Source of the DNA: Psammoneis japonica
Lineage: Eukaryota
DNA: 64,000 bases
NCBI GenBank assembly: GCA_008632985.1
Contig: QPGO01000037.1
Location: 248,001 to 312,000, forward strand
Reading direction: 5' to 3'
A program made the position numbers and the translations under genes. Shown piece by piece: positions 27,543 to 64,000 of the stretch; within the stretch, counting starts at the first letter, position 1, and the number at the start of each line of letters is the position of its first letter. The notes below the pieces were generated by a model, which searched no databases, was not told the DNA's origin, and saw only the letters and a program-made list of their open reading frames with translations.

Positions 27543-27957
27543 AGTAGAGGTTTGGACTACAGCTTAAGTCTGGACCAGTGGGAAAAAAGTTATTTGGAAC
27601 GTTCAGTTGATTCTTTACCACGTGCTTGTTTGAATTCCGACGTTACGGCAAGGAAACGATGCAGCTGGAAAGTCGACCGCCTCTGTCCTGTTTTCACTCC
27701 ACTCTTGCGGTTGTCATTTGCAGGGGATTGCAGTGACAGCCTTTTCTTGTTCTCTGATTTGCATTCCCAAGTCTAGAGAAAGTCTGCTCTGACTTTTTAG
27801 AACTCATTTGGGTAAGAGCGGAGTATGCTCTCTCTAGAGAGCGTGGTACAGTAGCGGTTGCCTTACCGGTAGTACAGGACTCTCTACTCTAGTCTCTAGA
27901 GAATTACTAATTCCTCACCACGGAGATGCTCACCAAATGCTCACCACGACTTTTTCG

Positions 27958-30325: not shown

Positions 30326-30465
30326 ACAAAAGAGGATAGACAACTACATAATTGAAGGAAAAGACTCCTTCACTATCGCTTCAAGTACCTAGTTCAAATC
30401 CTACTGCTTCGTTGCTGTTTACTTCAAAAATTATTTCTAATGCTTATCAGGTGTTGTCGCCCGAT

Positions 30466-32968: not shown

Positions 32969-33587
32969 GCTTGATAATGCTCCAAAAATGGATGTGTTTG
33001 AGAAATACGTAGTAAGTTCTTCTCATGGACGTCAATCGCAATGTCTGTACGAGGCACCTTGGGCTCATTTCTTTTCTTGTTTGTCTCGTTTTGACACAGG
33101 ATTGGTTGGAGAATGGTAGTTACGGCACCCCTCCGGACGGGGAATGGAATGGGGAGTATTTGTCTGGCGACAGAATTAGCCTTTGAGTGTAAATGTCATC
33201 GGAACAATGTTTGATTGGTGGGAATAAAGGTTCATCTGTTTGGATAATGTTGTTTCGCTATTGCTGTTGCTACTGTATAGCATCGCCGCTTGATAATGCC
33301 ACGAAATGGATGTGTTTGAGAAATGCCGTACGTGGTAGGTTCTTCTTATGAACGTCAATCGCAATGTCTGTACGGTATGAGGCACCTTATGCTATCTTTT
33401 CTTTGCTTGTTTATTCTCAATTCTCGTTTTGACGTAGGATTGGCTTAAGGAACGGTAGTCACGGCACCGCTCCCGACGGGGAATGGAATGGGGAGTATCT
33501 ATGAATGTCGTCGGAACAATGTTTGATTGGCGGGAATAAAGGTTATATTTGTTTGAATAACGTAGTTTTGCTATAGCTACTGTATAA
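32969..33587 (+). repeat. Tandem duplication of ~310 bp (copies ~32969-33287 and ~33288-33587)
   Basis: gcttgataatgc...atggatgtgtttgagaaat...gtcaatcgcaatgtctgtac...gacggggaatggaatggggagtat...ggaacaatgtttgattgg...gctactgtata occurs twice. Confidence 0.9.
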
Positions 33588-33625
33588 ACACCCCCGTGAG
33601 CCAACTAACAACACCCTCTTAATCG

Positions 33626-36393: not shown

Positions 36394-37135
36394 TGTGTGA
36401 GCCCGGTGGTATCACGGGAATGACCCGTAAAAGTTCAGGTTTGGAGGATCAGGTTGCTCTCTTCGTTTTTTCCTTTTTTGCTTTTCTCAAAACGACCTTA
36501 GCTCGAGAATAAGACACTGAAGGTAACGCAAAATTACAAGAACGCTACTCGCATATCCAACACTAACGATACCCTCTTCAGCTTTGGTTGCGAAAAGAAC
36601 TCTCCCATTGTGTTTGCACAGTTTGATCGCTGATACAGTAGATGTCGTCGCGACACCATTTTATACAGGTTGGTATGTTTTGGTATTTACTTTCGTGACT
36701 GGCAGTCACAGGAGAAGATTTAGAAAATAGCTTTTTGGAATAAGATGAAATTAATTCAAAAGAATATCAAGGAAATACGTAATTTTGAAAATTACTTTAT
36801 AAAAGTTTGTCGGAGGGAGGTTCATCGTGTACCGGTTTTTTGTGTGCGAAAAGAAAATATTATTTGCATGTCTAATCTGAAATCCGCGCACAAGCAACGA
36901 CAGCCCAGACCTTTTCATTTTTCATATGGTAAATAACCCGCTGAACATACTGAGAACAACAAAGATTGCACTCCTCTCGCTGCTCATCCAGAAGGATCAA
37001 AACCAACGCAGCACCGTTCCTTTTGTCGTACGAAATCCGCTGAACAACATTCAACATGGAGAACACAGACGTCTTTCTTATGGTGGCGGGTCTTATCCTT
37101 GATCAAAGACTCTCGAGATTCGTGATCTAGGGGCG

Positions 37136-38084
37136 ATGATGAGTGTGAGTGAGGATGTCAGTTCTTTGATCCGCGAATCTCAATGTTGGGAGCTCTGTCT
37201 CGACAAAAAACGGCTTGGTCTGGCTCCTCCTTGGAAGATCTGTACAACGCACTGGGAAGGACCGTGCGTTCCGGACGATTACACCGTCTATGATCTTCAC
37301 ATTCCTCCCCGACCACATGCAAGAGGTTCACGCCAGCCGGATCGTCTGACAGATTATCCCCATCGCAATGACACTCGTGCCCAGGGCCATGTCTTGGCGA
37401 ATGTGGCATTGCCTTTTCTTTCCGGCTTGCATCGTTTCAATCCAGCGACAGGTGCCTTGTATGACCTCTTTTATGACGCGCACGAAGACCCAGGGCCAGA
37501 GCGGGATGTTGTGTCGCATGGAACACAGGTGTACATTCAACGTGACTTACCAATCACGTGCCATGTCTGCGGTGTAGTTTGTACAACGTAGCTACCTAGG
37601 TTTGGTGCGCACTGCGTGACCGTTGATCACCAAGTCGCCTCCGTACCGCATCATGGGCGCATTCCGTCCTGCTTTAACGACCCAAGGAATAAGGTGGGTT
37701 ATGAAAGGAAGGAAAGCTCCTTCTGAAAAGGCGAAAGCTTGCCTCACATACAAGCAGAGAGTGCTGGACTTTCTAAAAGCGCTCCCATGGACTCTGCGGG
37801 TCTCGAAAACATGGAGATTGATTCACCGTGGTTTGGTCACTAGAGAATGTGAGAACAACGACTACCCCCTGGAGAATTGTACCATTGAACGGGTTACCAA
37901 GGCGTGTGTTGATTTCGTGGTTTCAGACTTTCTTCAAGATGGTTTGAGAATCGTTGGATACACACGTGATGCCATAATTCATGGTGGGGGGGATTTGGAA
38001 CTCATGGGAGTTTCAGCGGACGTTGGCTCTTCGACATGGTGGTATACCCCTAATTGTAGCGCTTTGATGACAGTGAACCTATAG
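37136..38084 (+). CDS. Hypothetical protein (two adjacent ORFs, possibly one gene)
   Basis: Consecutive 151 and 153 aa ORFs of plausible composition in a normal-composition island. No recognisable motif. Confidence 0.35.
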
Positions 38085-38347
38085 ACGCTGGTAGTCGCTT
38101 TTCTTCTTGCATGGAGTAGCATAAGGGTATAGTGATAAGAGTCTATTCATAACTTGCGCACTCTGATCGCATCTATCACGGGTTCCGTGTAGTGAGGATA
38201 AAAGGTGAAATACAATACCACATCGAGGCTACAAAACAGGAAACAAGGATTCTTATGCATTGATTACGTAAAATGGCGAACCACAAAAGCACCATTAACA
38301 CTTTTTCGTCGAACACGAATGTGACTAATAAAACGCAAATCCCGCAT

Positions 38348-39075
38348 TTACATTTTGTAATTCTGCGCCATTTTTTCGTAGGCCAAGACAAAGGCAAGAA
38401 TGAGGGCCATGTCAACGCCGGGAGCGACTTGGACGAAGTAATCGTCGCGGCGCATATCGTCTGCAAAGTTCTGAAGTTGCATCGGGCTGCGCAATGTGGC
38501 AATGCACTGACCGCCAGCCTGTTCTTCTTCTTGGAAGGCGCTTCACCCAAGTAAATGGACCCCTCCATGGTCAAATAAGTCACCCTGGCTTCCAACAGCA
38601 CCTCTTCTCCCTTTTCGTTCTTGAGGCCCTTGGTCTTTTGTTTCGTGTTGCCAACATTGGATTCAACCTTGAAGAGCACCTCGTTGCCGTCGGCGTCCAA
38701 GATGGTTTGCGTGTCATCCAACCAAGCAATGATCTTTTCAGTCATGACAAAGACGGGCTCTTTGGTCTCGGCATCTACAATGACACGCTTGTCACGAAGC
38801 GAAAGAGCCTTTCCACCCACTTCAAAGAGAGTCTTGGGCGGATTCACCGAAACGTCCTTGACTTGATAACTATCACCACTGAAACTTGTCCAGAATTTGG
38901 CACGGAGATGGAGGAGAGGAGGTGTTTTCTGGTCCAACGGAACCACGTACTTGCCTCCCCCAAACACCGTTAGCTTGCCGGGAGGGACTGGATCAAACGA
39001 AGGTTCCACCAAAAGTTCCGTCCTTTCCGTGTCATTCTCCTTCTTGCCATCATCTTTCTTCTTGCCGAATACCAT
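38348..39075 (-). CDS. LURP-one / Tubby C-terminal-like protein (apparent 1-bp frameshift ~38531)
   Basis: KFWTSFSGDSYQVKD...LFEVGGKALSLRDKRVIVDA. One added base gives ...DDYFVQVAPGVDMALILAFVLAYEKMAQNYKM*, the typical family C-terminus. Confidence 0.85.
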
Positions 39076-40149
39076 GGTAACGAAGCAGGGTATGTCGATG
39101 CAGTCGCAAGTGTTGTGACAACCTGAAAAGAGCGCAAAAGGCCAGAGTAATGACCCTGTTCGGATTTCAGATTTTATTTTTACGGTCGGTTTCTATCATC
39201 TGTACTTCTACGGAATGTAGCTTCATACAGTACCCTGGTACAAACTGTAGGCGAGCTACAGTGTACTAACTCACAAGGTGAAGTAAGTAACATAATCCGA
39301 TGATTGTGATTGGCTGAAACGTTCAACAAGGCTTCAGCAATGTCCAGAGGGCGATAATCAACAGATGTTCGAGTTCAAGTAAGATCCGACGGACTCGCTC
39401 GAATAAAATGTGTCGCCACATTTTTGCTTTGACGTGACGACAACACTTGCCGGTGCTTGAGATAAAACTTTGAGCTTGTATGCACCACCCCTCGTCCATC
39501 TGGCATGTGAATGTTGAGTTCTGCCAAATGGCAACCAGCTCCACTGAGATTGTTGTGCTGCACCAGATCAGGTTTGAATGCCCGCCTGTCCTGGTGCTTT
39601 TCAAAAAGTCACAGTTTGGCATTCGCGCACCAAGAGCTGCAGTTGTCACCAAGTTTTACAATGAGATGCACCATTGGCTCTGGTGTTGGAGCTTCACAGC
39701 TTGTTGAACAGTGTGCATTTGGTCTTGCTGTCTCCGAACTCACCGCATGGTTGCTCGCAAACATGCAGCGCTGTCGCAGTTGGCTGTTGTTGCCGCGTCA
39801 CCTGGGCGCAGAAGCTGAAAAGTGAGCACAAGACCCGCAACTCAATCCAAGCCACAAATGCAAACTTGCCACATTGTCTGCAATTGTCAGTGCATCTTGC
39901 ACTGCAACTTTGTCTGTCTGTCCTGTGAAAACCACCTCTGACCCCAATGTTCCAACATCCAGTCCAACTGGGTCATCCATGACCAACCAATTTGTGCAGT
40001 TCTTGAGTCAAATCTTCAGAGCCATTCTTGAAACATTGACATCTGTGGCTTCTTCTTAAAGGAGGGAGGGCACAAGGAGAACTTGTTCTTGCACCTTGGT
40101 TTTGAGCGAATCCTCATTCTCCCCATTTTTCTTTTGCCAATGATGCTCA

Positions 40150-41590
40150 GATCATTGTGGTCAGAGTCCAAGGGACAAATGTTGCAAATGGTTTCCAACA
40201 CCATTGCCATCTCCATCCCTCTGGCCCACATTGGCTGCCAAGAGGCAGTTGCCCAAGTTGTCCTGAACACCATCACCATTGCTGTCATTCTGCAACAGCT
40301 TCAACACAAAAAGCTTGTGTCCCTGTCCATCAGCAGCAGCAAAGTGCAGTTTGTTTTCATCCACCATGGTCAATCACAGTGGCCTTGAATGTGAACAATC
40401 TTTGTCACCAGGATGGATGTCCACTGCCATCTCCATTCTGTGGCAGCCACAATGGATCATGAGCCCAAAGCTCCTTTCCATGTTTTCCATTGCATGCACC
40501 AAAAAGCAACTTTCTGTTGACCAGAGTCAAGCATGATGGATTGGACAAGTCTCCACCAAAGCCAATGTCTTGCACCATTTCCATTGTTTAACTCACAGGG
40601 TCATGTGCCCAAAGCTCCCTTCTCCATGTTTTGTGTTTTCAGTGCTGAAACACAGCTTTCCATCCAAGGGTGTCAAATGGTCTGGGGACAAAGACTCATG
40701 AACTCCAGGATGGATGTCTTTTGCTGTTTCCATTTTGTGTCTTGCTGGATTGTGCACCCACAGCTCAAATCCACTCGTGTGCCCACTGCAAGCTTCAAAG
40801 CAGAGCTTTCCATCCACGAGTGTGAAGTGAGATGCATGAGAATGCTCAGGACCAGGGCTGACTTCCTTTGTTGTTTTTGTTGCATCACTTGATGGATTGT
40901 GAACCCAAAGCTTGATCCCATGTGTTCTGTCATTTGCATGGAAGCACAGCGGGTGTGAAGTGGGTTGTGAACCTGAACCCTTTTCACTGGGGTTGATGTT
41001 CTTTGCCATTTTTGCGGTGAGACTCAATGGATCATGAACTCAAAGCTCTTTTCCATGTGCTCCATTGTTGGCTGAGAAGTGCAATTTTCCATCCATGGGT
41101 GTGAAATGACATGGACTTGAATGAGACAGACCAGGGTTGATGTGTTTTGCCAGCTTTGTTTTGCAGCTGACCAGATTGTGCACCCACAACTCACTTCCAT
41201 GCTTTCTGTCATTTGCAGAAAAGTGTGATTTGCCATCCATTGGTGTGAAACCCTGAGCACATGATGATCTGCACCCAGGCCAGGATTGATGTCTTCTGCC
41301 ATTGCCATCATGTTGCCTGCTTGATCATGCATCCAAAGCTCCTCTCCACAGATTTCATTTCCAAAGTCATCAGCTTCATCCCTGGCTCCAAAGTGCAGCT
41401 TTTCATTCATCAGCGTCAAGTCCCCCAAGCACAAATGTTCACCTTTTTTGTTGTGTCATGCACTGGATTGTGCACCCAAAAGCCCCCAGCACTGAAGCAA
41501 AGCTTTCCATCCATGGCAATTGTGATTCTGTCCATTGGCGCCAGTGTGGCAAATTCATCAAACTTGAATGACAAAAAATGGCATTCCATC
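40150..41590 (-). pseudogene. ELWxxDGT-like beta-propeller repeat gene with thrombospondin type-3-like repeat, pseudogenised
   Basis: Repeated ELWVHNP...AKDI(N/H)PG...LTP(M/L)DGKL(C/H)FSA units and GDGVQDNLGNCLLAANVGQRDGDGNGVG. Multiple frameshifts. Confidence 0.8.
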
Positions 41591-42249
41591 AAGTGACCAT
41601 TTGATTTTGTGCTGGTTTGCATTTCCCAAATGCCACCTTCTTGTCAGCCATTTTGATGTTGAGAGGCACCATCATTCTCAAACTCCAATGGCATCTTTCC
41701 ATGCCATGTGCTTCCACCAAAAGTTCCTTCACATTGGTGCTGCAAAAGAAGCATGTGACAAGCCAGCAAAACAACATTGTTGTTGCTCTTGTGATGCACT
41801 TTGAGGAGAGATGGGCCTTGTTGTGATTTGGATGCTGCCTTTTTTTCATTTTGAGTGGTGCTGGCATGTTGCACAGAGTGACCCATTTTTGACAAAAAGT
41901 TCTTGTTTCCTTGATGGGAGTCTTGGACATTTTGGATGCACTTGGCACTGTTGCCCTGTTGAAATGACTTGACATGCAAGCACACAACACAGAATTGCAT
42001 GCCTGGGTCATCTGTGGTTTGTGACGCACTTGGTGCCACTGCCTTGTTGAAATGACTTGACATGCTCAGGTGGCAGTCCAGCTGCACACACAATGAAATT
42101 TGATGTGTCAGTCATCTGTGGTCATTGTCATTTCTTGCAATTGTGCTGTGCATTGCAGTGCATGATGTGGCAAAGTTTTTGTTTTTTAATGATGCAGGAG
42201 TGAGAAGCAATCTCCTCTGCTGGCTTTGGCCACCCAAACATTTGCAAGA

Positions 42250-43900
42250 GACAGGAGAACCACGGTGCAGCTGAGTGGTCAATTTGGTGCTCTGCATTGG
42301 CCAGTGCTGTCCTGCTGGACAAAGGGGATGATGCACACTGCTCTGTTGCTCAGACCCTTCCTTGTGTGCACCCGTTTAACATGGCCCAAGCCAGAAAAAA
42401 GGAAGGGAAGCAAAGAAAACCTCCCAGCCACATTTCCCTGGCTGTGGAATGTGTTTTTTTCTCTCTGTGGCTGTTTTCTCATGATTGCAGTGGCACACTC
42501 TTCTGAAACACTTGAGCCACATGGCCTGCTTGACACTGAACATTGTTTGCCACATCATTGGGGCAGGCAGAAGCAGCAGACAAGGGCACACTGCCATTGC
42601 AGGGAGGGCAATAGAAGGCATGTTGCTGGGAGCTGCACTGTGCATTGCCAAGGAGCAAGTTTGCAGAGGACGAAGTTTTTGGGGCTTGCACCACAGAAGG
42701 GTGTTGTGGGTGGGATGTTGCTTGTGTTCCTGCTGAGCATGCTTGGCACACCAGAGCTTGGGGGGGATGTGCAAAAGAAGGTGCAATGAAGATGGTGCAC
42801 CACTTTGTTTTGTTTTGCTGAGCACCCTGTTGAAAGTGAAGTGCTTCATTGGAGGTGCCAAACTTGGTGCTGCACAAAGAGCAGCAGCAGAGGGTGTCTC
42901 AGATGGGAGCGAGGGGGGGGTGCTTGGCTTTGATGAAAGCATTGTTGAAATTGCTGTTTGGGCAGAAGTTTGAACTTTTGCTCCTGCAGATCACTGCATG
43001 ACTTTGTTCCAGCTGCCAAACACCAATTTCCAATTTTGCATCATTTCCATGTGCCCCACACAAAACCCATGCACACCTGGCACTCTGTGCAAAAAGCCAA
43101 CAGCGCCACAAAGCAAGCTTGCTCTGACCTCTGAGGAAGCCCTTGCCAGACTGTTGGGTGTTGGGTGCATTGCAAACATTGCATTGTTGCTGCTTCACCA
43201 TGCTTGTTGTGCAAACACCACAGCACAAGATCTCCTGTGCTGGGAGCACTCCCCTTGCTGGTCAAGGGCAGGAAGCTCAGAACAAGTGGGCAAGAATGCA
43301 CTTCCTGCTTGAGGCTGGCAATGCTGCACCCCTCAATGAAGACAACAAAGACAGCCTGTGGCAATGCCACAGTGAGCACATCAAGCAGCCCCCAACAAAA
43401 AGAGGCTTTGAGCCACCCCACTTTCTGGAACAACATGTGGTTGTACTTGCCCAGGACAAATGAAAAGCCATGCCATTGGTGCTTTGTGTGTCATCAAAGA
43501 GCCCCAGCTTGCTGTGCTCAAGATGTGTGGGTTTTTTTGACTTTTGATCTTGTGGTGCAAGACTGACAAAACCTCCCCATGAGGGTGTTTGATGTGCGCA
43601 ACAAGCCAAGTTGCTGACTTGCCTCACACTGGCTGATTTTGCAGAATTTCCATGAAAAAGTGTGGTTTTGGGGCACATGCTGTGTCTTCTCCAAGGGTTG
43701 CCAGGTGGAGACATCTTTTGAGACATTGTGGAGCTGCCACTCAATGCACGACTCTGATTGATTCAATGGGTCACAAAATTTGCCCAGCGGGGAAGATGGA
43801 AGCACACTTTTGTGTTTTGTGCAATGACCCATCATGGGGAGGCCTCTTCCTTCCTTTCTTCCATGTGCCACACAGACCCTCCATGTTGGAAGTGCTCCAA
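42250..43900 (+). repeat. Unknown repeated coding-like element, copy 1 (homologous to ~57.1-58.85 kb)
   Basis: Collinear shared blocks: cctgctgag, aagaaggtg..atgaagatgg...tttgttttgctgagca, caagatctcctg, gaagctcagaacaa, aagccaagttgctga, ccaggtgga...tgtggagctgccact. Confidence 0.75.
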
Positions 43901-45517
43901 TGGCCAAATGGCCTTTCATTGTCAATCCACAATGCCCAACTCATCTTCAATCTTGCACTGATGCCCGTGCAACCATGTGCCCAGCCCGATGACAAATGAA
44001 GTCAGCAAGCAACATCTGTGTGGAGTTGTCAAGAACAGCACAGGTGTGGCTGGCTTCAGTCTCAAGCAGGGAATTGCAGCACCATTTCACAGCCAGGCAC
44101 AAAAACATCAAATTAAGAATGCACACCATGATGTCATGCCTTGTTTGTCACCTCTCCTCCTCTGTCATCCACCAGCACAAGCCCTCATCTCTGACAAATC
44201 TGTGGTCTGGGTCTGGTGGCTGGAATGCCAGGTGCTGGGCATTCCCAGGTTGCAGCATCTTGCCATGCTCACAAGAGCCAAGTTTCCCACCTGCTGCCTG
44301 CTTGAAATTGTTGTTGATTGCATGTGGATTGATCACTGTGGCATCTGACCTGGCCTTGTGTTTCTTGCTGTGTCCCTGGCTGTGGTTGAGTGCAAAGGCA
44401 ATGTTGACATTGGGGTGCAATGCCTTTGAACAATCAACACAGTGTTCAAATTGAACAGCCACATGGTTGCATCATCAGAGTGCATGACATTGTAATGTCT
44501 GCACACATGATAAAAACACATTGCCACATCATAAAATCTGCTTGTCTGCACATGATGGTTTTTGTTGTTCGGTTGATTGTTGATCCCCTGCTGTTCTTCA
44601 TGTTTGAACACAGATGCTTTTTAATTTTTGTGCTCAGCCTTTTTCACAACAACTGACGATCTTTGATGACAAGCCAAACATTGCAGTTGCATGCAATGAA
44701 ATTTTCATCATGCAAAGTGTGCACCAATTGTTCAATCAATGGCTGTGCTCCAATTGGCCTGTTTGTCCGCATCGTCCTCTTCATTCCACATGTCTTGTCC
44801 ACTCTCTTGCAAGAATTTCAAATGCACGTGCCGCTGCCGCATTGGATGTTTCCTTGTCACTGTTCCAAAAAAGCCACACTGCATTTCTTGCATTTGGGTG
44901 AACATCATCGAGAGGAAGAGGTCCCTCGAAATGCAGAATCGCATCGCTGCTCCCCTCTTGATGTCATGTCGTCTGCTTCTTTTTCTCTTTCTTCATTTTT
45001 CCCGTCCCATTTTTCTCTTCCTTCTTTGTCTTGGCGCCGCCTGTTTTCACCGTCTCCGGCATCTTTCCATCCGAATCCTTCTTTTTCATCGATCCTGTTG
45101 CCGTCGCCTTCATCGTGTGTCACTTTGTTTTGGATCCATGTTTCTGACTTCTCTCTGTGCTGTCCCCATTTCCAAATGTTTCTTTGTGATTGTTTGCACA
45201 CGTCACTTGAAGGCACCCACGTGTTCTTCACGCACCTTAACGCACATGTAGAAATCCATGTTGTTTTCCAGTGCATGCACCCTTTCTCCTGATGCATGTT
45301 TTCACAATGTTTTCTTCCATCAATTCCACACTCCGCATTGCCCTTTCCCGGCACAATCTCACGCAGGATTTCTCTGGGAGAAGTTGCACATGCGTCTGGC
45401 AGGTTTTTGTGTGCAAAACTCCAAATCCCACCAGGTGCGCATGTGACTTCTCCCACGCACCACTCTGGTGTGTTTCCACAGAAACCAGAATTTTGTGACT
45501 GACGCACGACCAATCTG

Positions 45518-46531
45518 GTGAATGCAATGGCGGACCCACGACCACAACAATCAGAGCATCAGAAGAAAACCATGTCAGATGAACTCCGTCCATCCGCTGC
45601 TGAGGATTTCCATCGCCGGATGATGGGGACAGTTGGTGGTTTTGTTCACGCTGACGCTGCTCGTTGTTCGGAGGAACAGAGAGCAAAGGATGCAAAGGCT
45701 GCTGTGTCAAGATTGGTGGAAGCAATGGCAGAAGCCCGTTGTGCCATTGTGGCTGCAATGACCACACTTGACAGTGCTTTGTTAAATCAAGCAACAACCA
45801 CTCGCGAATTTAAGCACATCTGTGCACAGTTCATTGAGTCATCGATCGAGACACACTGTTCAGACAACGACTGTGTTGTTGCAGTGGAAAATTGCAGCGA
45901 AGCGGAAATGAGTTTCCAATGCTTTCTTCATGGCAACGCATTTGACGCAAAAGAATTGGGGCTCCCAATCTCCGTTGCAGGACATCAAAAATCAGAATGC
46001 AGGCTAAACATGCTGCACAGCTGTGACTCGACGTTGCTTCTGAGAAGCCTCAGGGCAAATTCTGACACAGACGCCAACAGAGCAGCAGAGAGGGAGCAAT
46101 CTGCGATTGACAGCATTGACAAATCCATCCACCGCCATGCCATGCCACTCCTTCGAAGGCGACATCTAACACAGCCGCAGTGCGTCCTGAAGGACACAAT
46201 CGCGTTGCTTCACGAGGCCCTCAACGATTTGACAAGGAAAGACGTTGCCTTGCAGTGACAGTGGCAAGCTTTGTATGATCTGAGGCCAGGCACAGAGCAA
46301 ATGTGGGGAGGGACATGGACCACGATCCGGGCTGTGGACGAAGAAGCCGTGGCAAGAGAAAGGGTCCTGCAGTTGGCATTGCAAATCGAGGCACAATTGG
46401 TGGCTGTCAACCAGCCTGACCACAGCGCCGACTTTCAGCAGGCGATTGTGGCTGCCAGGGAACATTTCATGGCGCAGGATGACCAAATGGACCGTGCAAG
46501 TGGACACTGCATAGAATCCATGAGGAAGTGA
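45518..46531 (+). pseudogene. Degenerate unknown ORF convergent with the Plavaka-like transposase
   Basis: 246 aa ORF plus an in-line 86 aa ORF, helical/charged, almost Tyr-free. No family recognised. Confidence 0.35.
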
Positions 46532-46775
46532 TTGCTCTAAAAACACACACACTGTGAGTGAATGACAGATTGACACGCGCATCCCACTTTAGAAACAAAT
46601 CTGACCAACACTTCCTTCTGTCCTGTGTGGCCCAAACAAATGGGGCCTTTTCTTGTGCTTCCACTGCTCCTGGACATTCTTCATAAACCAAAACATTGTC
46701 CCCAATTGCTTTGACAGGGACAACACATAACTTGGGTGAGTGCTGAGTCTTCTCAGGCATTGAAAGCCAGTTGTT

Positions 46776-49605
46776 TCATTTGTGATCAAGCTGCCAGCGA
46801 CTGACCAAGTCTGCATGCTGATGCCGTTGCCTCACAGTTCTCTGGTCAGCTTGATGAGCAGTTGGATGGACAACTGCAAAAATTGATCCTGTGTCTTCCT
46901 GTTTGAAGAAACACAGCAAACGGGAGGAAAACTGTTGATCGCCCTTTCGTGTGCCAAAGGTCACACAGGCAAAGTCACACCATGGTCCTTTGCTTTTGCA
47001 ATCAGGGTGCGCACGGCACGTGTCCCTCCCGTTTGCATTGTAAAACTCTGTCTTACAAGTCAGGTGTGCACTTTCACTGTCTTCACCAACACAATCCTCC
47101 CACTTTTCCGACATGAAGTTCAGCAACACAGGATGAACTTGGCAACGAGTGTGCCCACTGTTCCACTCAAACGTCACAGCGCTGATCCCTCGGTTGTAGG
47201 TGAGAGTGAACGTGCTTCCTCCCAGCGTGTGATTGTCCGTCCTGACTCTTGATGATTCCTTTTTCCCAGTTGGCAAAATCCAACTGTCAGCTGAAATTGC
47301 GGCGTTGAGCCTCATTTGGTCCTCCATGCGCGACACGACCTGCTTCAGAAAACTGTCGAGGTTGCGTTGTTGTGCGGCAGATGACAGCAGCTTGAAAAAG
47401 TCTTTCAAGAGACATTCCCCCAAGCCTGCGTCAAAGTTCATTGCATGTCGGCAACAATGAAGAAACACTGGGAGATGGAGTGTTTCATGAAGCTTTTGAA
47501 GCTTCCACACGCATCCTTCTGTTCGAGGGATGAATTGCACCATCCAGTCAATGAGGAGACGGATTTTCTTGTTCATTTTCTGAACAGATGAACTGGGAGT
47601 TACGCTTGTGATGGGTGGATTGCCTGGCCTGTGCCATGCGTGGAAGACAAGAAGGTCCTCGAGCAATTGAATGAATTGCCGGACGCTGCAGTTGAGTCTT
47701 TTTCCCTTGTGTTTTTTCTTTTTTTTGTTTGTCGTCACCATCCTCAGCCTCACTCTCCTCTTTCTCATCCTCATTTTCGTCCCAGTCACCCTCTTCGAAC
47801 TCCTCCAACCTTTCATTGTCAGAGTCATCCAAGTGCTCACTGGGTTGGCAGCAACTCTCAAAGTTTGCTTTGGGCATCTTGTGATTCTCTGGAACAATGG
47901 GTTCGTCTGCGTCCTCGTCAAGGAAGCATGACTCACATGCGTTTCGTCCCTCGCTGGTCAACAGGAGAAGGTAGAAAACAAAAGCCATTTCAGTCCAGTG
48001 GTGAGAGTTGAGGAAGGTGAGCGACGTTGCTCCTCCTTTGAAGTTTGTTTGCAAAAAGGATGCTTTGCAAGTTGACCAGTGATTGCTGAAAATCCTTTCC
48101 ACTGTGCTGTCCACCTCACTTGCGACCACAGGTGTCATGCTGTCTACAAATGAATTGATCACCCTTTTCAAGGTGCCGTTTTCAAAGAGATGCATCATGT
48201 CACTTGCTGTCGCAAGGGTGACGCTGTGTGGTTGTGTGCCAAAGTCTGCCTCAAAAAGACAGTTGGCAGGTGCATTGTGTTGCTTGAGGCAATGCAAGAT
48301 GCCCAACCAGTGCTTCCTTTCTTGGTCTGATCTGTTGTCATCGTTGGCCTTAGTTTGCACTTGGTGGAGATCCAGTCCTCGGACAAACTCGCATTCAATC
48401 CATGGGTCGTCCAGTCAGTTGAAGCCAGTGAGGCAAAAACAACAGCAACGTTGATGACAGTTGTGACCTCTGTGTCATCCAACGAGACAGTTGCCGCTTT
48501 TTGCATCTCCCATGATGAGAACGATCAGTGGGATTACGTGGAGGTGTCGCATCTCATCCCCTCGTTGCACGTGTGTTTTCATGCCTCCTTTTCTCATGAC
48601 TTCCAAAAGTGGCTCCAAAATGACACGCAAGCAAGTGTGGTGGTCTCTTGACGAGCGTCCCTTCTCTGCCTTGCGATTGTTTGAGAGATTCTTTGCCGCA
48701 GATGATGACATCTTTTCCAAATCCAGGAGACAACCAATTGGTTTCCAGACACTCTTGTCCGACCATTTGTTGAAGGCAACATGCGCAGAGGTCATGATCA
48801 CTGGCTCTCCGCAATGTGATCCCATCCCTTGTGTCCTGCCAGTCTTGTCGAGGTAAATGACATTGCACTCGAGAAATTGTTTCTCCGGGTCAGTCATCCG
48901 TTCTTCGTGACTGCGCCTGCACCACTCACCCGCCAAAAGGCACTTGTCATCCAGTCCCTTCGCTTTGTGCTTCCCAAAAGGATTGTCTGGATCGGCCATG
49001 TTCTCTCTGCTGCACCACAGGTGAGGATCGAGTAAAAACTGTTCCCAAACCTTTGTGAAATCCCATCTTGGCACTGACACTCGTTTTGGCAAACCGGTTT
49101 TGAAATTTTTGGTTTCTGGAGTGACAGAAATAGACTCGCTGGGTGGAAGAGGGAAATGCTTGGTTAAGGTGCACATCAACTCTTTTCTCCTTGGCAGAAC
49201 TGCACCAAGCTCAATGTTGCTGTTGCCAGTGTGCCTCTCAATGAAATTAACAATGCAATCGCACAATTCCAGGGGAGCACCGCGTGTGTCCATGAGCTTC
49301 TTGCACAACTCCATGCAAGCTCCGTCAAGATTTGTCAGAGAGGGAGCAGAAGCCAAGGCCTCTTCTGCAGGAGCGTCATGCCTGATCCCCAAATGTTGAT
49401 CCTCATCGTTGATGTCCTCTTCCTCCTCCATTGTCATGTCCAACACTGCAGCAAAGGATTGACCACCGCCAACATCCAAATCGTTCATTGCTGAAAGTTC
49501 AACTCCTTGCATGCTGTGGTTTGATGAAATGGAGGACATGTCGTCCATTCCGTGCGGTGCGTCATCCGGGGAGGGGAACAAGGGGCTGCTGCTCGGATCA
49601 CTCAT
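46776..49605 (-). mobile_element. Plavaka-like transposase, frameshifted
   Basis: VIYLDKT...GEPVIMT...WKPIGCL...HHTCLRVILEPL...IMGDAKSGNCLVG, DMMHLFENG, WKLQKLHETLHL...NFDAGLGE, and C-terminal CRAHPDCKSKGPWCDFACV. Family assigned from recalled motifs. Confidence 0.72.
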
Positions 49606-50310
49606 TGAAGATCTTGGGAATCTGCTGTGAGTTGATCACCTTGGACAGGATTCGTCATCATCAGAGGACGAAGAGGAAGAACTGCCGCTTTCTTCGGGTG
49701 GCCCCTCTGTTGTGGCAGGAATGTCACTTTGATCTGGGATTGGATCTTGGGTTTCCAACTCTTGGGCAACTGAGCAACACGTCGGTGAGCATCTCCAATG
49801 GCAGGCCATTCGCAAAAAACTTTGGCCACAACCGGGACAGAGAAGAGGGTTTCCATCCATTGCAAATCAGACAACATTGACAGGGCCTTCATCAAGACTC
49901 ATGCTCATTGTCCTTGTCTTGTGGATGAGAAGGGAAAAAAGAACAACACGCAAAAAATGGCGGGAAATTGGCAAACATTGCATTGTCTTCCAGATTGGGA
50001 TGATTCTTGTGGGCATGACGCATCTGCATTTTGATTTTTATCTGGCATCCACAATGAATGTTGTGCTTTTTATTTGCTGTCAAAATGCAGGACATCATCT
50101 CCATTGAAACGCAATGACAGCCACATCAAAAAGCAAGTTGGACCATTCGTTGTTGTGTGTGAACACATTTTCACATTTCAATGTTGCTGACAATGATTTG
50201 TGCAATGTTGTAGAGAAAAATAGAGTGCCTGGCTGTCTCAACACCACCCAAACAACGGTTGCACTGTCGAACAGCACCAATCCTCTCATTGTTGCAGTGA
50301 AAAGATCAAG

Positions 50311-51580
50311 ATGTCGTCTCCAGCACAACTGGCACAGAAGAGAAAGAAAAATGAGACTGTCAAGCCAATGAGCCCAAGACTTCAGGCAGTGTTGAAGAGA
50401 ACAGGTGCGCAGGCAGCACATGGTGCATTGAAATCAGAAGCAGAGAAGGTGGCTAGAAATGATCTCTTTCCACAGGTGAAGTTTCTCAGTCCGTCAGAAT
50501 TGGCAAGCAATGGGAGCATCTCAATGTTTGTCAACAGATTGCTGGTGGCAACATGGACACTTCAAATTGGTCAGGAACTTAGGAGGAATGGGCAAAAAAG
50601 GCGGTAAAAAGGCAAGTTGACAATCGCAGAAACACGGTGTGTTCGCTGTTGGGGCGGAGGCAATGGCCCACAAGTTGAGTGACCAATGTGTGTGATTCGA
50701 GAGTTGCGTGCATCTCACAAGAAGATGACGGTGATGCTTTGTCTGTGTGGGCATTGTCACTGAGGAAGAGGGAAAGGAAAAAGAAAAGAAACTCAAGGCG
50801 GCAGACAGGAGGAAAAAGAGGAAAAAGTCAAGCCGTGACAAGAATGAAGAGAATGACATCCCGTTTGTGCCGACATGGGATCCGTTTAGCCTGGACACTG
50901 TCGCCGGCGGTAAATGAAGGAACAAGCAGGCATGCAAGTGGTTCTGTGATCACATCCTGCCTCAAACCAAGCAAAAGCAGGCATGGAGCAGTGCCGTCAA
51001 AACTGGGAATGCACAGGTCTCACAGTTGTTTGCGGTCAGTGACGAAGCTTTGGCACCATTGGCCATGGAGAATTGTTGGCAGGTGTGGGCATGCAGGAAC
51101 AAGGAGGAGGCGGTGGAAGAATTGGGTGAGGAAATGGAGCCTGAAGAAACAAGGCCTGCCCCTCGGTGCACGAAGCCAAAGAAACAACGAGTGTCTTGGG
51201 AAGATGACTGAATCAATCGGTTCAATGATTTGTGCAAAGAGGTGACGAAAGACAGAGACTCCAAGGAGGGCAAGGAGTTTGAAAAGTGGCATGCGGAAAT
51301 CAAGAAAAGCGAGCACGAGAAGTCCGGAGAAGCAAAAAAGAAGAAAAAGAAAGCACCGACCGGTGATGCGGATGAGGTGAAGGCAATGAACAGCCCAATG
51401 GTGGAGAGCAGCAGGGATGACAATGGCAACGACGATGAGCAGGAGGAAGGTGCAAAAGGCAAAATGGACAACGGAGGAGACGAGTCCGATGGAGACGAGT
51501 CCGATGATGATCGTTGGCTTGGTTTAAGAGAGTTGCAGCAAGAAAATGTGTGCACAGTCAACATGGCACTCGGTCATTGA
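50311..51580 (+). pseudogene. Divergent companion ORF of the Plavaka-like element
   Basis: ARNDLFPQVKFL, FAVSDEALAPLAMENCWQVW, PRCT, W...INRFNDLCKEVTKDR and an acidic tail. Same TpA-lost, CpG-kept signature as the transposase. Confidence 0.5.
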
Positions 51581-53498
51581 ACTGCAGATGCAACAAGGGA
51601 TTGACTCAACCGATGAAATGCTTTTCTTGTTTAAAACAATGTTTGCGAAAATTGACAAACCAAGGATTGTGTGGAAATGCAATCGCGCATTGGCACATGG
51701 CAACAAGGTGGAGGCAGATGTGGTGATGTGGATGCAGTGAAAAATGGCACACACAATTCTCAACAAGTTGTTGCAACATTGGTGTGGCAAACTTGCAACC
51801 AGAGGTTGGCCTTTCATCATGTGACGACAATGTTTTGCAACATTTTGACAAATTGTCATCATGTAAATCCACACATTTTTAACATTTTGTGCACTCTGAT
51901 GATGTCCAGTGTTCCTCATTTGTGGTGCCAAGTTTGAAGCAAAATGCAAAAGGCAAGCCAGCAAGATCTTTCTTGTCTCTCTTTGCCAAAATTGATTGCT
52001 TTGGCCGCTTCCTCATCTGCATGTGCTTTCCCTCTTTTGTGGTTGTTGGTTCTTTGCAGCTTGTCAAAGTGAGTCTGAAGTCCAGCTCTCATTGCTGTGA
52101 AGTGGTGCTAAAACCATTGCTGGCACCCCTTCTGTCTTTAGATGCAATGCTTGCCTGCCATTCAGTTCCACCCATTTTTGGAAACCCCCATGCCAGCATG
52201 AGATGCTGGGAGTGCACAACAACTTTGTCTTGTTGGGACAGAAAGAGTGGCTGTTTTTCTCTGGTTTTTGAGTGCTCGAGTTTCCTCCAAATTGACAGTC
52301 ACATGTTTCTTGGTGATTTCATGGAGGAAATCAAAGTTGTCAACATGAAATTCAGTGTCCTTGGTGCAATGGAAACCATGGTCATTGTCAGCTGGCATCT
52401 TTTCCTCCACCTTGAATGCTCCTGTCTCTGCCTTTGTGAGCTGGGTGCTGCACCCACATCTGTGATGCCACAGCTCCATTTGGGCAAGGGACTCCTTTGT
52501 TGGTTCAGATTTTTTCTTGGAGCACTGCATCAGGTTGTTCATGGCCATCAACACAAATTTTTTTTTCATGTGTCATGCTCAAAACCCAAGCATTTCAACA
52601 GCCACCAGCAGTGCCGTCCAGTTGTTTTTGACACTGCCTTGTCGCTGCAGCACCTGACAAGGATGTCACAGAAAAGAGCCAAGTTCTCATCTTCAGCATC
52701 TTTCTGTTCATGGAATTTTTCCACAAGTTCTGGGATGGCTGTCTTGCTCAAACAGTCAGATGCCATTTGGAACGCAAGATCTTCAAGGTTGCTGATGTGG
52801 CACGCACCTGGCCCTTTCCAGCTTCTGAAAAATGCTCAAACAAGTCAGGCAGTTTTTTCTCTTGCTTTGGTGGCATGGGACAGAGGGAAATGCCCATGGT
52901 TGCTTCTGAGCTGAGTGTTCCAGGCTCCAACAGCTGCTGCTGTTGCAGCTTGCACAGCTCCTGGCGTGCTTCTTGGCTGGGTGCTTTGCGCTGTCCACAT
53001 CTGACCTGAGCTCCATGCCAGTTCTTCAAGAGCACACAAACAGGACACACACACACATCAGTGCATCTTCTCCACATGCACAGCTTTCATCCCATGATGC
53101 TGTCTGAGGGAGGGGTGCTGGAGTGTGAAAAAAGCGAGAGTTGGCAGCATTTCACCGTGGCTGTTTTTGGCACAAGATGGTGATGACAGCAACAACAGCG
53201 CCTGTTTTGGCAATGGTGGGAGCAACAGCATCGGGCACACCAGTCAAAAGAAATGCAGGGGGTGAAGTCAGCATTTGTGCCTTTGCCTGTGGGAGGCAGC
53301 AGAGCAAAAAATGACAGCACCAGCTTGTGGGTTCTCACCTCATGCGAGGGACAACAGACGATTAGGGCCCTGCGCCTTTACGCGACGCGACGATACGATT
53401 TATGCACGTCTGCGTACGTGCGTCGACCGCGTCGACCGTGTCCGTCGCAAGCCAAGCCGCCAAAAGCACAGCGACAACGGGTATGGTATGAAGCAAAA

Positions 53499-54307
53499 CG
53501 GTGCTTGGCGATGAGAACCCGACCACATCATGGCAGTTATCAAGCAACCAATCAACTTGGCGAGATAACACCGAGAGAGGGCCACTACTCTAGGTTGGCG
53601 AAGTCGTCATGAAATCGATAAGTGAAAACGCGACAAGCGCTTTCGAAAAATTGTCTTCGAGAGAATCAATCAACGAGCAACGAGGATATATTTTGTCAAT
53701 AAATGTTTGCCAACGTTTATGGTAAAGGGCAAATACACTCGCGGTTTTTTCAAAGACAGTGTCTCCCAAGAAGTCGATCGCGGAATTGTTAACAGAAACA
53801 ATAGCACCGATAAATGTTGGCCACAAGCAAGGATATTCTCAACATATATTTATTGCTGATAGAGACAAAGACTTCCAAGACCTCGACGCAGAAAGCCAAG
53901 CAACCAATGCCCAATCACCTCGTGAGGAGGCACCTTCGGTGCTTGGCGATGAGAACCCGACCACATCGTGGCAATTGCCGTCGAAGACTTATCATTTAAG
54001 GAGTGGGCAGGGGAGGGCAACTGGTGCCAGTCACATTGTTTATTGAGATATAACACCGAGAGAGGCCACTAGGTTGGCAAAGTCGTCATGAAATCGATAA
54101 GTGAAAACGCGACAAGCGCTTTCGAACAATTGTCTTCGAGAGAATGAATCAACGATGATAAAATTTTGTCAATAAATGTTTGCCAACGTTTATGGTAAAG
54201 GGCAAATACTCTCGCGGTTTTTTCAAAGACAGTGTCTCCCAAGAAGTCGATCGCGGAATTGTTAACAGAAACAAATGGCACCAATAAATGTTGGCCAACA
54301 TTTATTG
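53499..54307 (+). repeat. Recent tandem duplication (~53499-53823 and ~53937-54297) ending in a perfect 26-bp palindrome
   Basis: Near-identical blocks cggtgcttggcgatgagaacccgaccacatc and aagtcgtcatgaaatcgataagtg...gttaacagaaaca. caataaatgttggccaacatttattg at 54282-54307. Confidence 0.92.
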
Positions 54308-56440: not shown

Positions 56441-57099
56441 CGAGTGAGGTTCTCCTGGGAGTGAACACAAGGCGACTTTGTGCCTTCATGCTGGCGATTG
56501 CGCGCGTGGTCGCGGTACCACTTTCTATGGCCCCGGGTCCGTTCGATTCCCTGGTCTCTCTGAGCTACGCGTCGAATGTGCTTAGGACTGCCTTACATGT
56601 GGAATCGCCCTCGCCAGAAAGTTGAGATGATATACACATTTAATGGTTGATGCATGAAAAATCTTAGAAGACAGGATGTCACGGGTGATGAGATGTTTGC
56701 CGGCAAGAATGCCCACTCGTTCCTCCTTGCAGGTGTTCACATTTATAGAGTTGTCACATCTTAGTAGATCATGTGTTCAACGCAAAGCAATCATTCGCGA
56801 AGGACATTAGTCTCTCTAGAGAGCAGCCCTTTCTCAATGCTTTGTAGTCTCTAGCCGCCCATCGCCATCAATCCAATTCACCCTGCCGCATGAATCCTGA
56901 GAGAGATGTCACCGACCATCAACACACACATCACAAAGCACTTTTCACGACATGAGTTCACGTGTGCCGCGGAAGCACGAGACAAGGAGGCCTGTGGCTG
57001 GCTCCAAGTTCATGAAAAACGAAGAGGAAAAGGGAAGAGAAAAAGAAAGATCACATTTGTGCTGACACTGAGCTCAAAAAATCCATTGCTTTGTTAAAC

Positions 57100-58850
57100 T
57101 CTGTTGACTGTTGATTGCAATGCTTCAACACCCATGGCATCTCCAGCATTTCAAAAGTGTTGGATGTGCACACTTGATGTGTTTTGGTGGCTTTCCCATT
57201 CTGTGCCAGTCCAGTCACTGCATGAATTTGGCTGCCTTTGGCTGGCACAGAGGTGTGGGCTCTGGTGTTTTTCACCTCATGCCAGAAAAGGCAAGGCAGG
57301 ACATTGTGCTTGTCCCTGCTGAGTTGCCGCTCAATGTGAAAAGCTTGGGGTTGCAGACAAAGAAGAAGGTGTGATGAAGATGGGCTGTCACTTTGTTTTG
57401 CTGAGCATGCCATTGATGATGCATCAAATGGCTGGCAGCTGGTGGCACCAAACTTGGTGTTGCAAAAGGAGCGGCATTGGGCACAGTCAAAGGTGTGTCA
57501 GATGGGCCATTGCTTGGCTCTGCCCAGGAGATGCCCTTTTCAGACTGCCAGGCATTGGATGCACTGCCAGCACTGCATTGTTGCCCACTGTGTGCCACAC
57601 TTGTCATGCAAAAATGACAGAGTGCAAGATCTCCTGACATGCACTCCAGCTCCAGGGGGTGGGACCTTGCAGTGCTGGACTGCAACATTGATGCATCTTG
57701 TCAGGCACCACATGTCATGCACATGCACACATTTCTGCATGACTTTGGTCACACCACGCATCATTTTGCAGTGCAGTTGTTGGGTGATCTGCACTCAGCA
57801 TTAACTTTTGACTTTTTTGTGGCTGCAATGCTGCAGAATTGTGCACACATTTGCAAAAAGAGCGCAGTTGTGAAGAGGTGTAATTGTGCTGCAAACTTGG
57901 CCACTCTCACTCAGATTTTGAAGAGAAACACATTCATTGCCCAAGGTCCAAACTGCAGAACTTGCACACTGAATTCTGTGGGCCCGTGTCACATGGAGTT
58001 CTGCCCATGGCTGGAATGTGTCTCCTGCATTAGGAGCTCTCCCCACCCACCAAAGGCAGAAGCTCAGAACAAATGACAAGAGTGCATCAGTGCTCTTTTT
58101 TTGAAAACTGACAATGACAGAACCCCCAACAACAACAGCCTTTGGCAAGGATGTCATGATGAGTGCATCAAGCTCCCAATGAAAAGAAACTTTGGGCCCA
58201 TTTGAGCTCCAGCTCACTGCACTTGCTGCACTGACTATGTGTGATTTCTTTGGATTTTTTGAATCTGGGTGTGGTCCATGTGCAGCACTGTGATGTTCTG
58301 TCTGGCTCTTGTGGCACAGCACTGATGAAACCTGCACGCGGGGGTGTGTTTAACATGTGCAAAAGCCAAGTTGCTGAGCTGCTCCATTGGCTGCTTTTGC
58401 TGAATTTTGAGTGGTGAGGATGCCCCCCACACCACATTTTGTGGGTGCCTTTCCCTGCAAGATGTGTCTCTTCCACCAAGCTTGTCAATGCATCACAACC
58501 TCCACCACTCAAGGAAATCATGGAAAAGTGTGATTTGGGGTGGGGTGTGCAACATCCTTGGCCACACCAGGTGGAAAAACATCTTTTGATGTTGTGGAGC
58601 TGCCACTTGCTGCCCCCTGTGCATGGGAACATGAAAGACACTAATCTGGTCAAGGTGCTGGGTTGCAAACTTTGCCAGCAGGAAAGGGGGAAGCTGCAGA
58701 CTTGCTTGTGGTCATGCCAAAAAGTTGCCACTCAGACTGTCACAAAAAACATGGTGCCAGTGTTGTTGAACCAGCAAGTAAATGTCAACAAAAGGGGGCC
58801 CCACTGGGCGTCCTGTGCCACTTGGCATGCTTGCCTCAGCTGCTTGTGGC
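57100..58850 (+). repeat. Unknown repeated coding-like element, copy 2 (homologous to ~42.25-43.9 kb)
   Basis: Collinear blocks shared with copy 1. Confidence 0.75.
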
Positions 58851-59054
58851 AGCTGTGGGTTGCCCAAAAGTTGTCAATGCAAAAACTTCAAACCGGCAAC
58901 ACAACAGATTCCCAGTGGCACCAAATGATGAAATCATGCAAATCAAATGATGTGATTCACTCCACCAAAGAGTGAGATGAGCTGGCTGAAAGGTGAGAGA
59001 GAGATTGGGGTGATGATGAAATCTTGGTTGCAAAGAGTTGCCGAGTGAGCCATG

Positions 59055-59830
59055 TCAGGAGTCAAGTGTCCTTCCTTTGGTCCATCTAGATTCCTCATGA
59101 TTTCCCATGATCCAGGTGCTCCAATGCAACACTCCTGCTGCTTGAATTGATGCAATGCAGTGATGCTTTGCATCCAGGGGAGACTGATCCCTGTGGCATG
59201 TTGGCACAGCATTGCCATTCATGTTGGTTGCCTTGGCATTGATGCCCTGTAAGTCACGTGCAATGCCTTGCACACACTCCACAAAATGCTCCATGCAACT
59301 GTGGCAAGTCTTCTCTCTTGCAACTTTGCTTTGTGGACCAACTTCCTGCCCTTGATCCCACCATTGATTGTCTCAGGAGTGAACTTAAAGAACTTGATTT
59401 TGCAGCAAGCCCACCAACTTTTGGGATGTGCACGATCAATGACACGTGTGGAAGAATGAAGCCAACTTTTCAGTGTCACAGACAATGCCATTGGTGCCTT
59501 GCAACAGACTGCCTTGACTTGCTTCACCTCTGGGGAGGTGAGTGTGGTGTGGAGGTTCATGAAGGGACCACAAACCCCGAGTGCACCCGTGCCATTTGTG
59601 GGGCAACTGGCCATCAACAGCCTCTTCAAATTGTCAATGGCACATCTGTCTGAGGCAAACTGCAAGTTGTTGCCCTGCAATCCTGCAACACTCATCTTTC
59701 ACCATGTTTGTTGTGATTGTCATGTTTTCCAAAGAAATGATGGAATCTCATGCCTTGCCTTCAGGCTTGACACCCAACAAAATGCCAAAATTCCTTGCTG
59801 GTCTTGTGCACCTCCCCACCATGTGATTTG
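59055..59830 (-). pseudogene. Remnant of the unknown ORF downstream of pol in copia element C
   Basis: Homologous to 2072-2443 (aactgcaagttgt and gatggaatct blocks; GNNLQFA versus GDNLQLA). Confidence 0.5.
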
Positions 59831-60399
59831 ATTTCAGACAACACATTTGAGACCATTGGGGAGGGAGAACAATGGTGCAGTGGCAGACATGTGTCCATCA
59901 GGTTGTGCCTCTTCATTCACAGCTCATGCTGTGTTTCTGAACATTGCAAACTTTCTCTTGCACACTGACAAGCACTTCTGCCCCTTTCAACCTCCAGCAT
60001 TAATGAGCACACATCCTCTGTTGCATTGCAGCAGAGGCACCACAGATCTTGAGTCAGGGTGAAGTGCCTGTTCTGGGTCCACTGAGTCAACTCTTCTTCT
60101 GCTGTGTGGAGGCCCTTGTCTTGGAATCTCTTTTCATTCCTTGACTCTGTTCTTCCAGTCCTGCAAACATGTCCCAACAGTGCACAGCCAGTGCTGCATT
60201 GTTGTGCTGCTGTGTGGCACATTGCACTCATTGTTGCTGTGCTTGTTCACAACCAGCAATGTCATGGCTCTCTTCTGAAAAAAGTTGTGGCTGGTTGAGC
60301 CATGTGGCTCATGACCTTTTCCAGGTCTTTTGCCCACATGCATCAGAGTTCTCATCTGATGCAACAAATGGGGAACACTCCTGCAAACTTGAGGTTGAC

Positions 60400-63300: not shown

Positions 63301-64000
63301 TGCACATTTGGTCTTGTCTTTTAGCATGTCTGTTGGTGGACCCCAAATGGCTGCCATCCTGTCCACATCTTAAAGTGCAATGGACCTTGTTTGAATGCAA
63401 AAACAGCTTGAAATCTATCACATTTGGTGCTCCAGCTATGAAGCACAGCCTGAGTGCTTGCTCAGCATTCAATGCCTCCCTCTTGGTGTGGCCTGTGGAA
63501 CAAGCTTCACTGTCAAAACACCACAGCTCCAGATGCACTCCTGTGCTCTTTGTTGCTCTCCTTCTGCTGCTTCTTCTTCTTTGACAGCATGCTCGCCGGC
63601 AACTCACTCTCTTGAAGATCTTTTGCATGGTCATAAAACTTCTGGCTTGGCATGGGGGTGTGCATCCTGGTGTCATTCACTTTGAACACCCCAACTTGCT
63701 TGCCAGTTTTCTTGTCTGATGGTTGAAACTCATCCACCACTCGGTTGTCACATGTCATGCAGAACTTGCTCTTCATGTCCTTTAAACTGAAGATGTTTGC
63801 CTTGCCATTGCATTCTGGATGCAAGCTTCACATCCCCCCATCCAGACATGGCACAGTTTTTGTCTGAAGCACCTGCTCCTGCACTTGTGGACAGAACAAT
63901 CTTGGTCTTTGCCAGTCACACATTGTGCACCACTCTCAGGCTTGCCACCATGCCAAGGGCAGAGCCATTGTCAAGGATGATTTCATCTGCCTTGATGCCC
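60400..64000 (-). mobile_element. Degenerate Ty1/copia element C, related to element A; continues beyond the window
   Basis: GDFMTKPLQGKK.FQKF..VIMG (RNase H end), FHVDDLLSSH and KIAGALV...EKGKRALCVKV (RT), HVPKVEGSMQTSKE (integrase), and DEFQPSDKKTGKQVGVFK matching element A's DELQPPDKKAGKQVAVFK. Confidence 0.92.

Follow-up and report, generated by a model that had tools for sequence, protein, structure and literature searches.

Described systems of dinucleotide-directed change in mobile DNA

Repeat-induced point mutation (RIP), which acts in Neurospora and other ascomycetes, converts C to T, mostly at CpA, and in doing so creates TpA and lowers G+C. The locus described here lies in a window of 64,000 nucleotides from Psammoneis japonica (contig QPGO01000037.1, positions 248,001 to 312,000 of the forward strand; "the window" denotes this whole stretch). 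It resembles RIP in that dense transitions are restricted to repeated or mobile DNA and the copies are killed, but the direction of change is different, as TpA is removed while G+C remains 0.48; the signature of raised TpA and lowered G+C is not found in the block under study. This block is a Plavaka-like DNA transposon copy of 7,431 bases (44473-51903, with the transposase frame on the minus strand), which is delimited by its inverted ends and by an empty-site joint, and which sits inside an older, decayed island. In this element, the losses of TpA and CpG are uncoupled: TpA loss does not follow from CpG decay, and it preceded CpG loss in the lineage. Plavaka transposases (PF18759) belong to the CACTA/Mirage/Chapaev group, and the literature searched for Plavaka together with diatoms yielded two papers, with passing mentions only.

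For the general process of TpA erasure in mobile DNA, the sole published parallel is a 2026 preprint on an unrelated alga, Bigelowiella natans, which describes hypermutation specific to TpA in the integrated DNA of giant viruses and virophages (Mettrop et al., bioRxiv 10.64898/2026.01.13.699255). Of 231 hypermutation events in two viral insertions, 230 are A>G or T>C, and TpA is the site of all of them; they arise de novo, in some mutation-accumulation lines only, at about 1000 times the background and at approximately 6e-7 per site per generation. The preprint also reports that transposon domains are enriched among TA-poor genes and that there is no C-to-T component, and proposes an ADAT2-like adenine deaminase as the agent; it holds no mention of CpG, diatoms or trinucleotides and no discussion of flanking bases or of a spread of copies already mutated (10.64898/2026.01.13.699255). 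The two cases share an A:T to G:C change at TpA only, which yields TpG and CpA, its restriction to mobile or foreign DNA in otherwise normal surroundings, and the absence of coupling to C-to-T change. They differ in that B. natans is a rhizarian in which viral DNA is the target, the mutations are new ones observed in the laboratory and the depletion is mild (rho TpA 0.45), whereas here the host is diatom-like, the targets are transposon islands, the observed-to-expected ratio (O/E) falls to 0.02-0.08 and the end result alone is seen. Literature searches on TpA loss in diatoms or in transposons returned nothing beyond this preprint. The element thus offers a natural time series of the TpA process in a second lineage, and what is new in it is the separation of TpA loss from CpG loss, the evidence that stripped copies multiplied and the flanking-base preference.

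The third system to be considered is the decay of CpG in methylated transposons. In the diatom Phaeodactylum, transposons are methylated through DNMT5a; when this enzyme is lost, DNA methylation disappears and young transposons are set free (PMC9998398). Decay of this kind is matched here by the flanks of the element, where the CG O/E is 0.08, and by at least 15 CpG-type changes private to the block, but it cannot remove TpA, and within the block it has progressed much less far than TpA loss.

Composition of the block, its flanks and the host genes

The window consists of gene stretches, with a TA O/E of about 0.56 and a CG O/E of about 1.0, interleaved with islands in which both dinucleotides are almost absent and TG and CA are nearly doubled. 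The block holds 42 TA against 499 expected (O/E 0.08) and 242 CG against 431 (O/E 0.56), whereas its flanks (40001-44472 and 51904-53000) hold 9 TA against 372 (O/E 0.02) and 26 CG against 320 (O/E 0.08), and the genes at 20001-38000 stand at 0.56 for TA and 1.02 for CG. Mononucleotide shuffling of the block, repeated 200 times, gives 498 +/- 17 TA and 429 +/- 16 CG. Since G+C is 0.48 in the block, in the flanks and outside the block alike, correction for it leaves the contrast unaltered: CG occurs at a 6.9-fold higher rate in the block than in the flanks (conditional binomial p = 2e-32). For TA the factor is 3.5 (p = 2e-4), which means that TA loss is a little closer to saturation in the flanks than in the block. 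Retention of CpG is even along the element, with a CG O/E of 0.54 in the transposase-homologous part, 0.66 to its left and 0.53 to its right, and coding constraint is therefore not its cause.

The missing dinucleotides reappear as TG and CA, whose O/E in the block reaches 1.57 and 1.60, respectively. With the host genes as the baseline for mass balance, approximately 238 TA and 189 CG have been lost from the block and approximately 389 TG plus CA gained, an agreement within about 10%; in the flanks, some 495 TA and CG lost correspond to some 488 TG and CA gained. A previous sequence-only reading of this DNA had singled out a block at 44760-51830 that keeps CpG while TpA is nearly gone, between flanks depleted in both, and all of this is borne out, including the difference from the flanks at equal G+C and the two motifs that it quoted, which are located at 47324 and 51479. 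Its coordinates describe the CpG-rich core, bounded by CG change points at 44768 and 51687, while the element itself extends over 44473-51903.

Uncoupling is also visible across the window as a whole. When it is divided into 160 pieces of 400 bases, 23 are TA-low with middling or normal CG (18 of them wholly within the block), and the reverse combination, TA-normal with low CG, occurs in 0 of 160, in accordance with the uncoupling that the sequence-only reading had proposed. On the gene side of three island borders (near 19.6, 39.4 and 56.9 kb), TA depletion extends 170-350 bases beyond CG depletion; the limits of the two zones agree within about 80 bases at the 53.3 kb border and at the window's left end. 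The change points of the islands are sharp to tens of bases, and the neighbouring genes are normal. The older left flank (40001-44472) has a TA O/E of 0.02, a CG O/E of 0.07 and a single-copy-like depth, and no recognisable protein domain was found in it; the older right flank runs from 51904 to the island border at 53345, where CG changes, with the TA change point at 53363. Pfam searches of 99 frames from the flanks and the block gave sub-threshold chance matches only.

The element and its insertion

The left inverted end (44470-44495, plus strand) pairs with the right one (51879-51904, minus strand) over 26 nt with 81% complementarity, and the outermost 15 bases of the element ends are perfect reverse complements. 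The target duplication is probably the two bases AT (44471-44472 and 51902-51903), as judged from the letters at the junctions, and the empty-site joint is compatible with it, as it is with other readings of the junction. At position 44485 of the left end, the window reads TG where the family reads CG.

The transposase is a pseudogene in two frames (46593-49842, minus strand) with four in-frame TGA stops, at 49636-49638, 48475-48477, 48415-48417 and 47548-47550. By blastx it matches residues 1-685 and 767-1151 of a homologue of 1154 amino acids (P0007) with 35% identity, and it aligns to full-length transposases of approximately 1,000-1,400 residues at 25-39% identity. Protein searches with the element found no close copy, the top identities being 34-41%, whereas a profile that combines the window frame with three relatives matches 1,262 proteins at E <= 0.001. 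The window frame itself scores 17.3 bits against Pfam Plavaka, below the cut-off of 26.3, and the proteins P0001-P0003 have no Pfam match; of 19 more distant homologues, 13 exceed the cut-off, 3 score less than it and 3 are without a match. The label "Plavaka-like" is thus right by homology, not by the Pfam score of the window frame. The homologous transposase, the perfect 15-base inverted ends and the likely short target duplication fit this group; in addition to the low score, the ends differ from it in not reading CACTA.

The long ORF segments that the sequence-only reading had noticed are in part a side effect of TA loss: 355 of the 413 stop triplets on both strands of the block are TGA, and long overlapping frames are present on both strands. 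Long open frames were consequently dropped as a sign of youth, since DNA free of TA has TGA stops only. As a separate feature, a CpG-containing unit of 15 bases is perfectly repeated in tandem (2.1 copies) at 51476-51506; this is the second of the motifs that the sequence-only reading had quoted.

Evidence for the youth of the insertion comes from X1, the one public run that carries the block. This run is probably the sample of the window's own assembly, and hence no independent proof; its data are contigs, in which rare variants are dropped and summed depth is not a copy count. Within these limits, summed contig depth is 4,247-26,230 over the block and about 80-124 over the flanks (approximately 40-300 times), which points to an abundant family. 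One X1 contig joins 44472 directly to approximately 51904; its depth is 39.5, where the flanks have about 80-120, and 16 of the 17 letters past the joint match 51904-51920. The flank at 43500-43818 likewise occurs in two versions, one without differences from the window (depth 55.4) and one that departs from it at 19 letters (depth 31.2). The insertion is therefore missing from one of the two forms of the locus, which would be either a second haplotype or, with lower probability, a paralogue. The inverted ends and the empty-site contig support the block as a discrete, younger insertion within an older, fully decayed island; here the sequence-only reading was correct, and a block depth in the thousands agrees with it.

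An internally deleted relative is represented by one contig (depth 889) that joins 46848 to 49877; the missing stretch, 46849-49876, takes out the transposase core. Comparison of the window with itself revealed no further copy of the block, a 26-base string taken from it had no exact match in metagenome contigs, and the runs X2 and X3 offer almost no contig coverage of the block. No RNA data carrying the block are listed among the public runs searched. A further X1 contig, of depth 31.6, joins 39152 to 44418 across 18 other letters, so that some version of the locus is without about 5.3 kb of the left flank. It does not come from the molecule of the empty-site contig, which extends at least 97 bases to the left of 44472.

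Direction of change and relatives in other genomes

The protein frame records the direction in which TpA was lost. Of the 696 codons of the minus-strand frame 47548-49635, 2 encode tyrosine (0.3%), where two homologues have 3.3-3.6%, and its cysteine and histidine together make up 9.0%, against about 4.5%. At 19 columns where homologues have tyrosine, the window reads histidine in 6, phenylalanine in 5, cysteine in 1, tyrosine in 1 and other residues in 6; at the 10 columns with at least 50% tyrosine among 70 normal homologues, it reads histidine in 3, cysteine, tyrosine and arginine in 1 each, and gaps in 4. The sole conserved tyrosine retained is that of the invariant YLDKTG motif. The loss of tyrosine claimed earlier from the letters is thus real.

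The wider protein family is not TA-poor. Median tyrosine content is 3.07% among the 139 of 150 listed homologues that reach at least 200 amino acids, and the TA O/E of the matched part is 0.46-0.72 in all 22 of 22 related loci on metagenome contigs. Whether an intact family consensus is itself TA-poor, the possibility that the sequence-only reading had named against its own proposal, consequently has two answers: the local family is TA-poor, the wider one is not. Two of the metagenome relatives (L016 and L017) have a CG O/E of 0.22-0.39 with a normal TA O/E (0.57-0.60), so that in other organisms CpG decay of the ordinary kind is seen while TpA is not lost.

Two protein clusters stand apart. 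The clusters of P0099 (1,290 amino acids) and P0116 (1,200 amino acids) are full-length and Plavaka-like, with 1 tyrosine each (0.08%) and histidine or cysteine at conserved tyrosine columns; they have 3 and 8 members, respectively, several of them full-length, on separate contigs of other public assemblies. The TpA-erasing signature therefore seems to be present in other sequenced material, in open, multi-copy frames.

These comparisons also bear on the proposal that no biological process is involved, the pattern being an assembly or base-calling artefact or a family that is TA-poor by nature. In its favour there is only that the run agreeing with the window may be the source of the window's data. 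Against it stand the separately built X1 contigs, with 0 differences from the flanks over several pieces, the sharp borders beside normal neighbouring genes, the replacement of conserved tyrosines by histidine or cysteine and the normal TA of all 22 relatives elsewhere, which together render an artefact extremely improbable.

Shared and private changes in the copy

Contigs of X1 further permit the family to be compared with this copy. The family shows the window letter at 90% of depth or more at all but 284 of 15,001 places; these variable places, counted at a share of at least 10%, are of all kinds, TG/CA swaps amounting to at most 100. The 40 best-supported of 287 variable places were inspected, and counts by context rest on that subset. 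Of these, 28 lie in the block. At 15 of them the window reads TG or CA where the family reads CG (94-100% of depth, although place 48477 rests on a single contig), 6 places form 3 TG/CA swaps and 5 are of other kinds; at 1 the family has TA and the window CA, and at 1 the window has TA and the family CA. The in-frame stop at 48475-48477 (minus strand, column 409) illustrates the first class: homologues have arginine there and the one other contig, in which place 48477 is A>G at a depth of 88.8 of 88.8, reads CGA, so that the stop is a product of CpG decay private to the copy.

If approximately 240 TA sites had been converted independently in each copy, approximately 480 variable places would be expected. 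As 284 are found, common descent is concluded for the TA-poor state in the abundant part of the family. The symmetric GTAC site at 51314/51315 agrees with this, as 98% of depth is TG where the window has CA, a split that many independent conversions, which should divide roughly evenly, could not produce. Two old copies in the window (3448-6668 and 60656-64000, 65% identical) serve as a positive control; their 145 CA/TG swaps among 517 adjacent double mismatches show that independent conversion in place leaves a strong trace in this genome. From these contig comparisons, it is concluded that most TpA loss was apparently inherited from an already-stripped progenitor and not acquired at the locus, that a few sites were converted later and that the changes private to the copy are mostly CpG decay, the later process.

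The sequence-only reading had supposed instead that TpA conversion ran to near saturation within this insertion, and this part of it is not supported as worded, the family being already TA-poor and the best-supported private changes mostly of the CpG type. That version, in which the copy landed with normal TpA and was converted in place to near saturation, like every other copy on its own, before much CpG decay, can draw on the 145 swaps of the old pair, on the three swaps and the one family-TA site, which indicate some conversion after the split from the bulk of the family, and on a context bias (survival of 1% at RTAY and 32-35% at YTAR, where R is a purine and Y a pyrimidine) that could give the same product independently. 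It is nevertheless regarded as unlikely, given the deficit of variable places, the missing even split at GTAC and the 15 CpG-type private changes against 3 swaps.

The explanation that is favoured, with somewhat better than even confidence, invokes two processes. The first would convert TpA to TpG or CpA (A:T to G:C) with a signature like that of B. natans, fast and probably in bursts; the second would be the slow, ordinary decay of CpG to TpG or CpA, attributable to cytosine methylation, and both would act in silent, transposon-filled DNA. Judging from what the copies share, the family progenitor would have been stripped of TpA with most CpG kept, and its stripped copies would then have multiplied. 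Movement in trans by a rarer working copy may be supposed here because the copy's own transposase is broken; the internally deleted form at depth 889 speaks for it, and such forms are typical of DNA transposons mobilised in trans. One copy would have inserted at 44472/44473, in an island already without both dinucleotides, and since then it would mainly have lost its own CpGs. The TpA process would accordingly be separable from methylation-driven CpG decay, in the order TpA first and CpG later, and the suggestion that mutated copies still multiplied matters for the question of how far the process truly serves to defend the genome.

Several points weigh against this account. Only 40 of 287 variable places were seen, and X1 contigs come from one run, lose rare variants and give a summed depth that does not equal copy number. 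Shared descent is drawn from totals rather than from a tree of single copies, and a strong element-wide strand bias, as the 6:1 ratio of histidine to cysteine at tyrosine columns might indicate, could mimic shared conversions. No working master copy was found in the material analysed, and the methylation basis of CpG decay is one that we infer. Finally, CpG loss in the block is about 44% relative to host genes, but only about 17-25% relative to relatives elsewhere.

Different targeting, rather than timing, could also be proposed: the CpGs of the block would have been kept through less or no methylation and not through youth. The evenness of its CG O/E over coding and non-coding parts would suit such a domain-wide state. 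This is thought rather improbable, as the shown subset contains at least 15 private CpG decays against about 3-4 other private changes, which means that CpG sites mutate far faster, in the way that methylated ones do, and as youth is shown separately by the empty site.

A last possibility concerns how the stripped copies came to multiply. In place of debris mobilised by a hidden intact master, the family could be an escape lineage, in which TpA-free elements are no longer targets of the mutator and expand again, perhaps with a working tyrosine-free transposase. At the places of this copy's two internal stops, the few further family contigs with coverage carry neither stop, the tyrosine of YLDKTG is kept and the low-tyrosine clusters are full-length, with several members each; these are hints from sequence comparison, and escape is looked upon as an improbable alternative to a hidden master.

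Flanking-base preference and relative rates

The TpA process favours purine-T-A-pyrimidine sites, and pyrimidine-T-A-purine sites survive best. Relative to host genes, TA survival at RTAY is about 1%, whereas YTAR retains 35% in the block and 32% in the old repeats. Surviving sites were collected from 2001-18000, 40001-44472, 51904-53000 and 57001-64000, in addition to the block; TTAA together with CTAA/TTAG constitutes 60% of the 91 surviving TAs in old repeats, against 13% in genes, while ATAT, ATAC and GTAC are nearly gone. As for the strand whose base is changed, four-letter mass balance would assign approximately 75-80% of RTAR conversions to RCAR with either host genes or relatives as the baseline; the tyrosine columns lean instead to histidine over cysteine, 6 to 1 in a small sample. 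A preference of this kind is a property that any candidate deaminase must reproduce.

In the copy, TA survival is 0.15 (0.08/0.56), and CG survival is 0.56 relative to host genes or approximately 0.75-0.83 relative to relatives elsewhere, from which it follows that, per site, TpA loss is about 3-10 times further along than CpG loss. The sequence-only reading had called the TpA process faster than, and no by-product of, CpG deamination; its independence and its precedence in the lineage stand, but a rate is not readable from the age of the insertion, since TpA loss is older than the insertion, which therefore yields no absolute TpA rate. Given a full assembly, the many copies of the family would let both rates be measured directly.

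Other features of the locus

A second piece that is low in TA and retains CG lies at 39501-40000 (TA O/E 0.03, CG O/E 0.38), with a contig depth of 1,358 against about 80-120. At the island edge, an open frame of 338 amino acids without a Pfam match occupies 38176-39192 (minus strand); over 38.4-39.0 kb, the TA O/E is 0.22-0.23 with a near-normal CG O/E of 0.72-0.88, and TpA loss may have spilled here into neighbouring single-copy DNA. In the gene stretch to the right of the island, 53562-53823 and 54047-54297 form a direct repeat of about 260 bases with 91% identity, and contigs show a joint there that jumps back 411 bases. The top named relative of a BRO1/ALIX gene near the element is from the diatom Asterionellopsis glacialis, with 50% identity.

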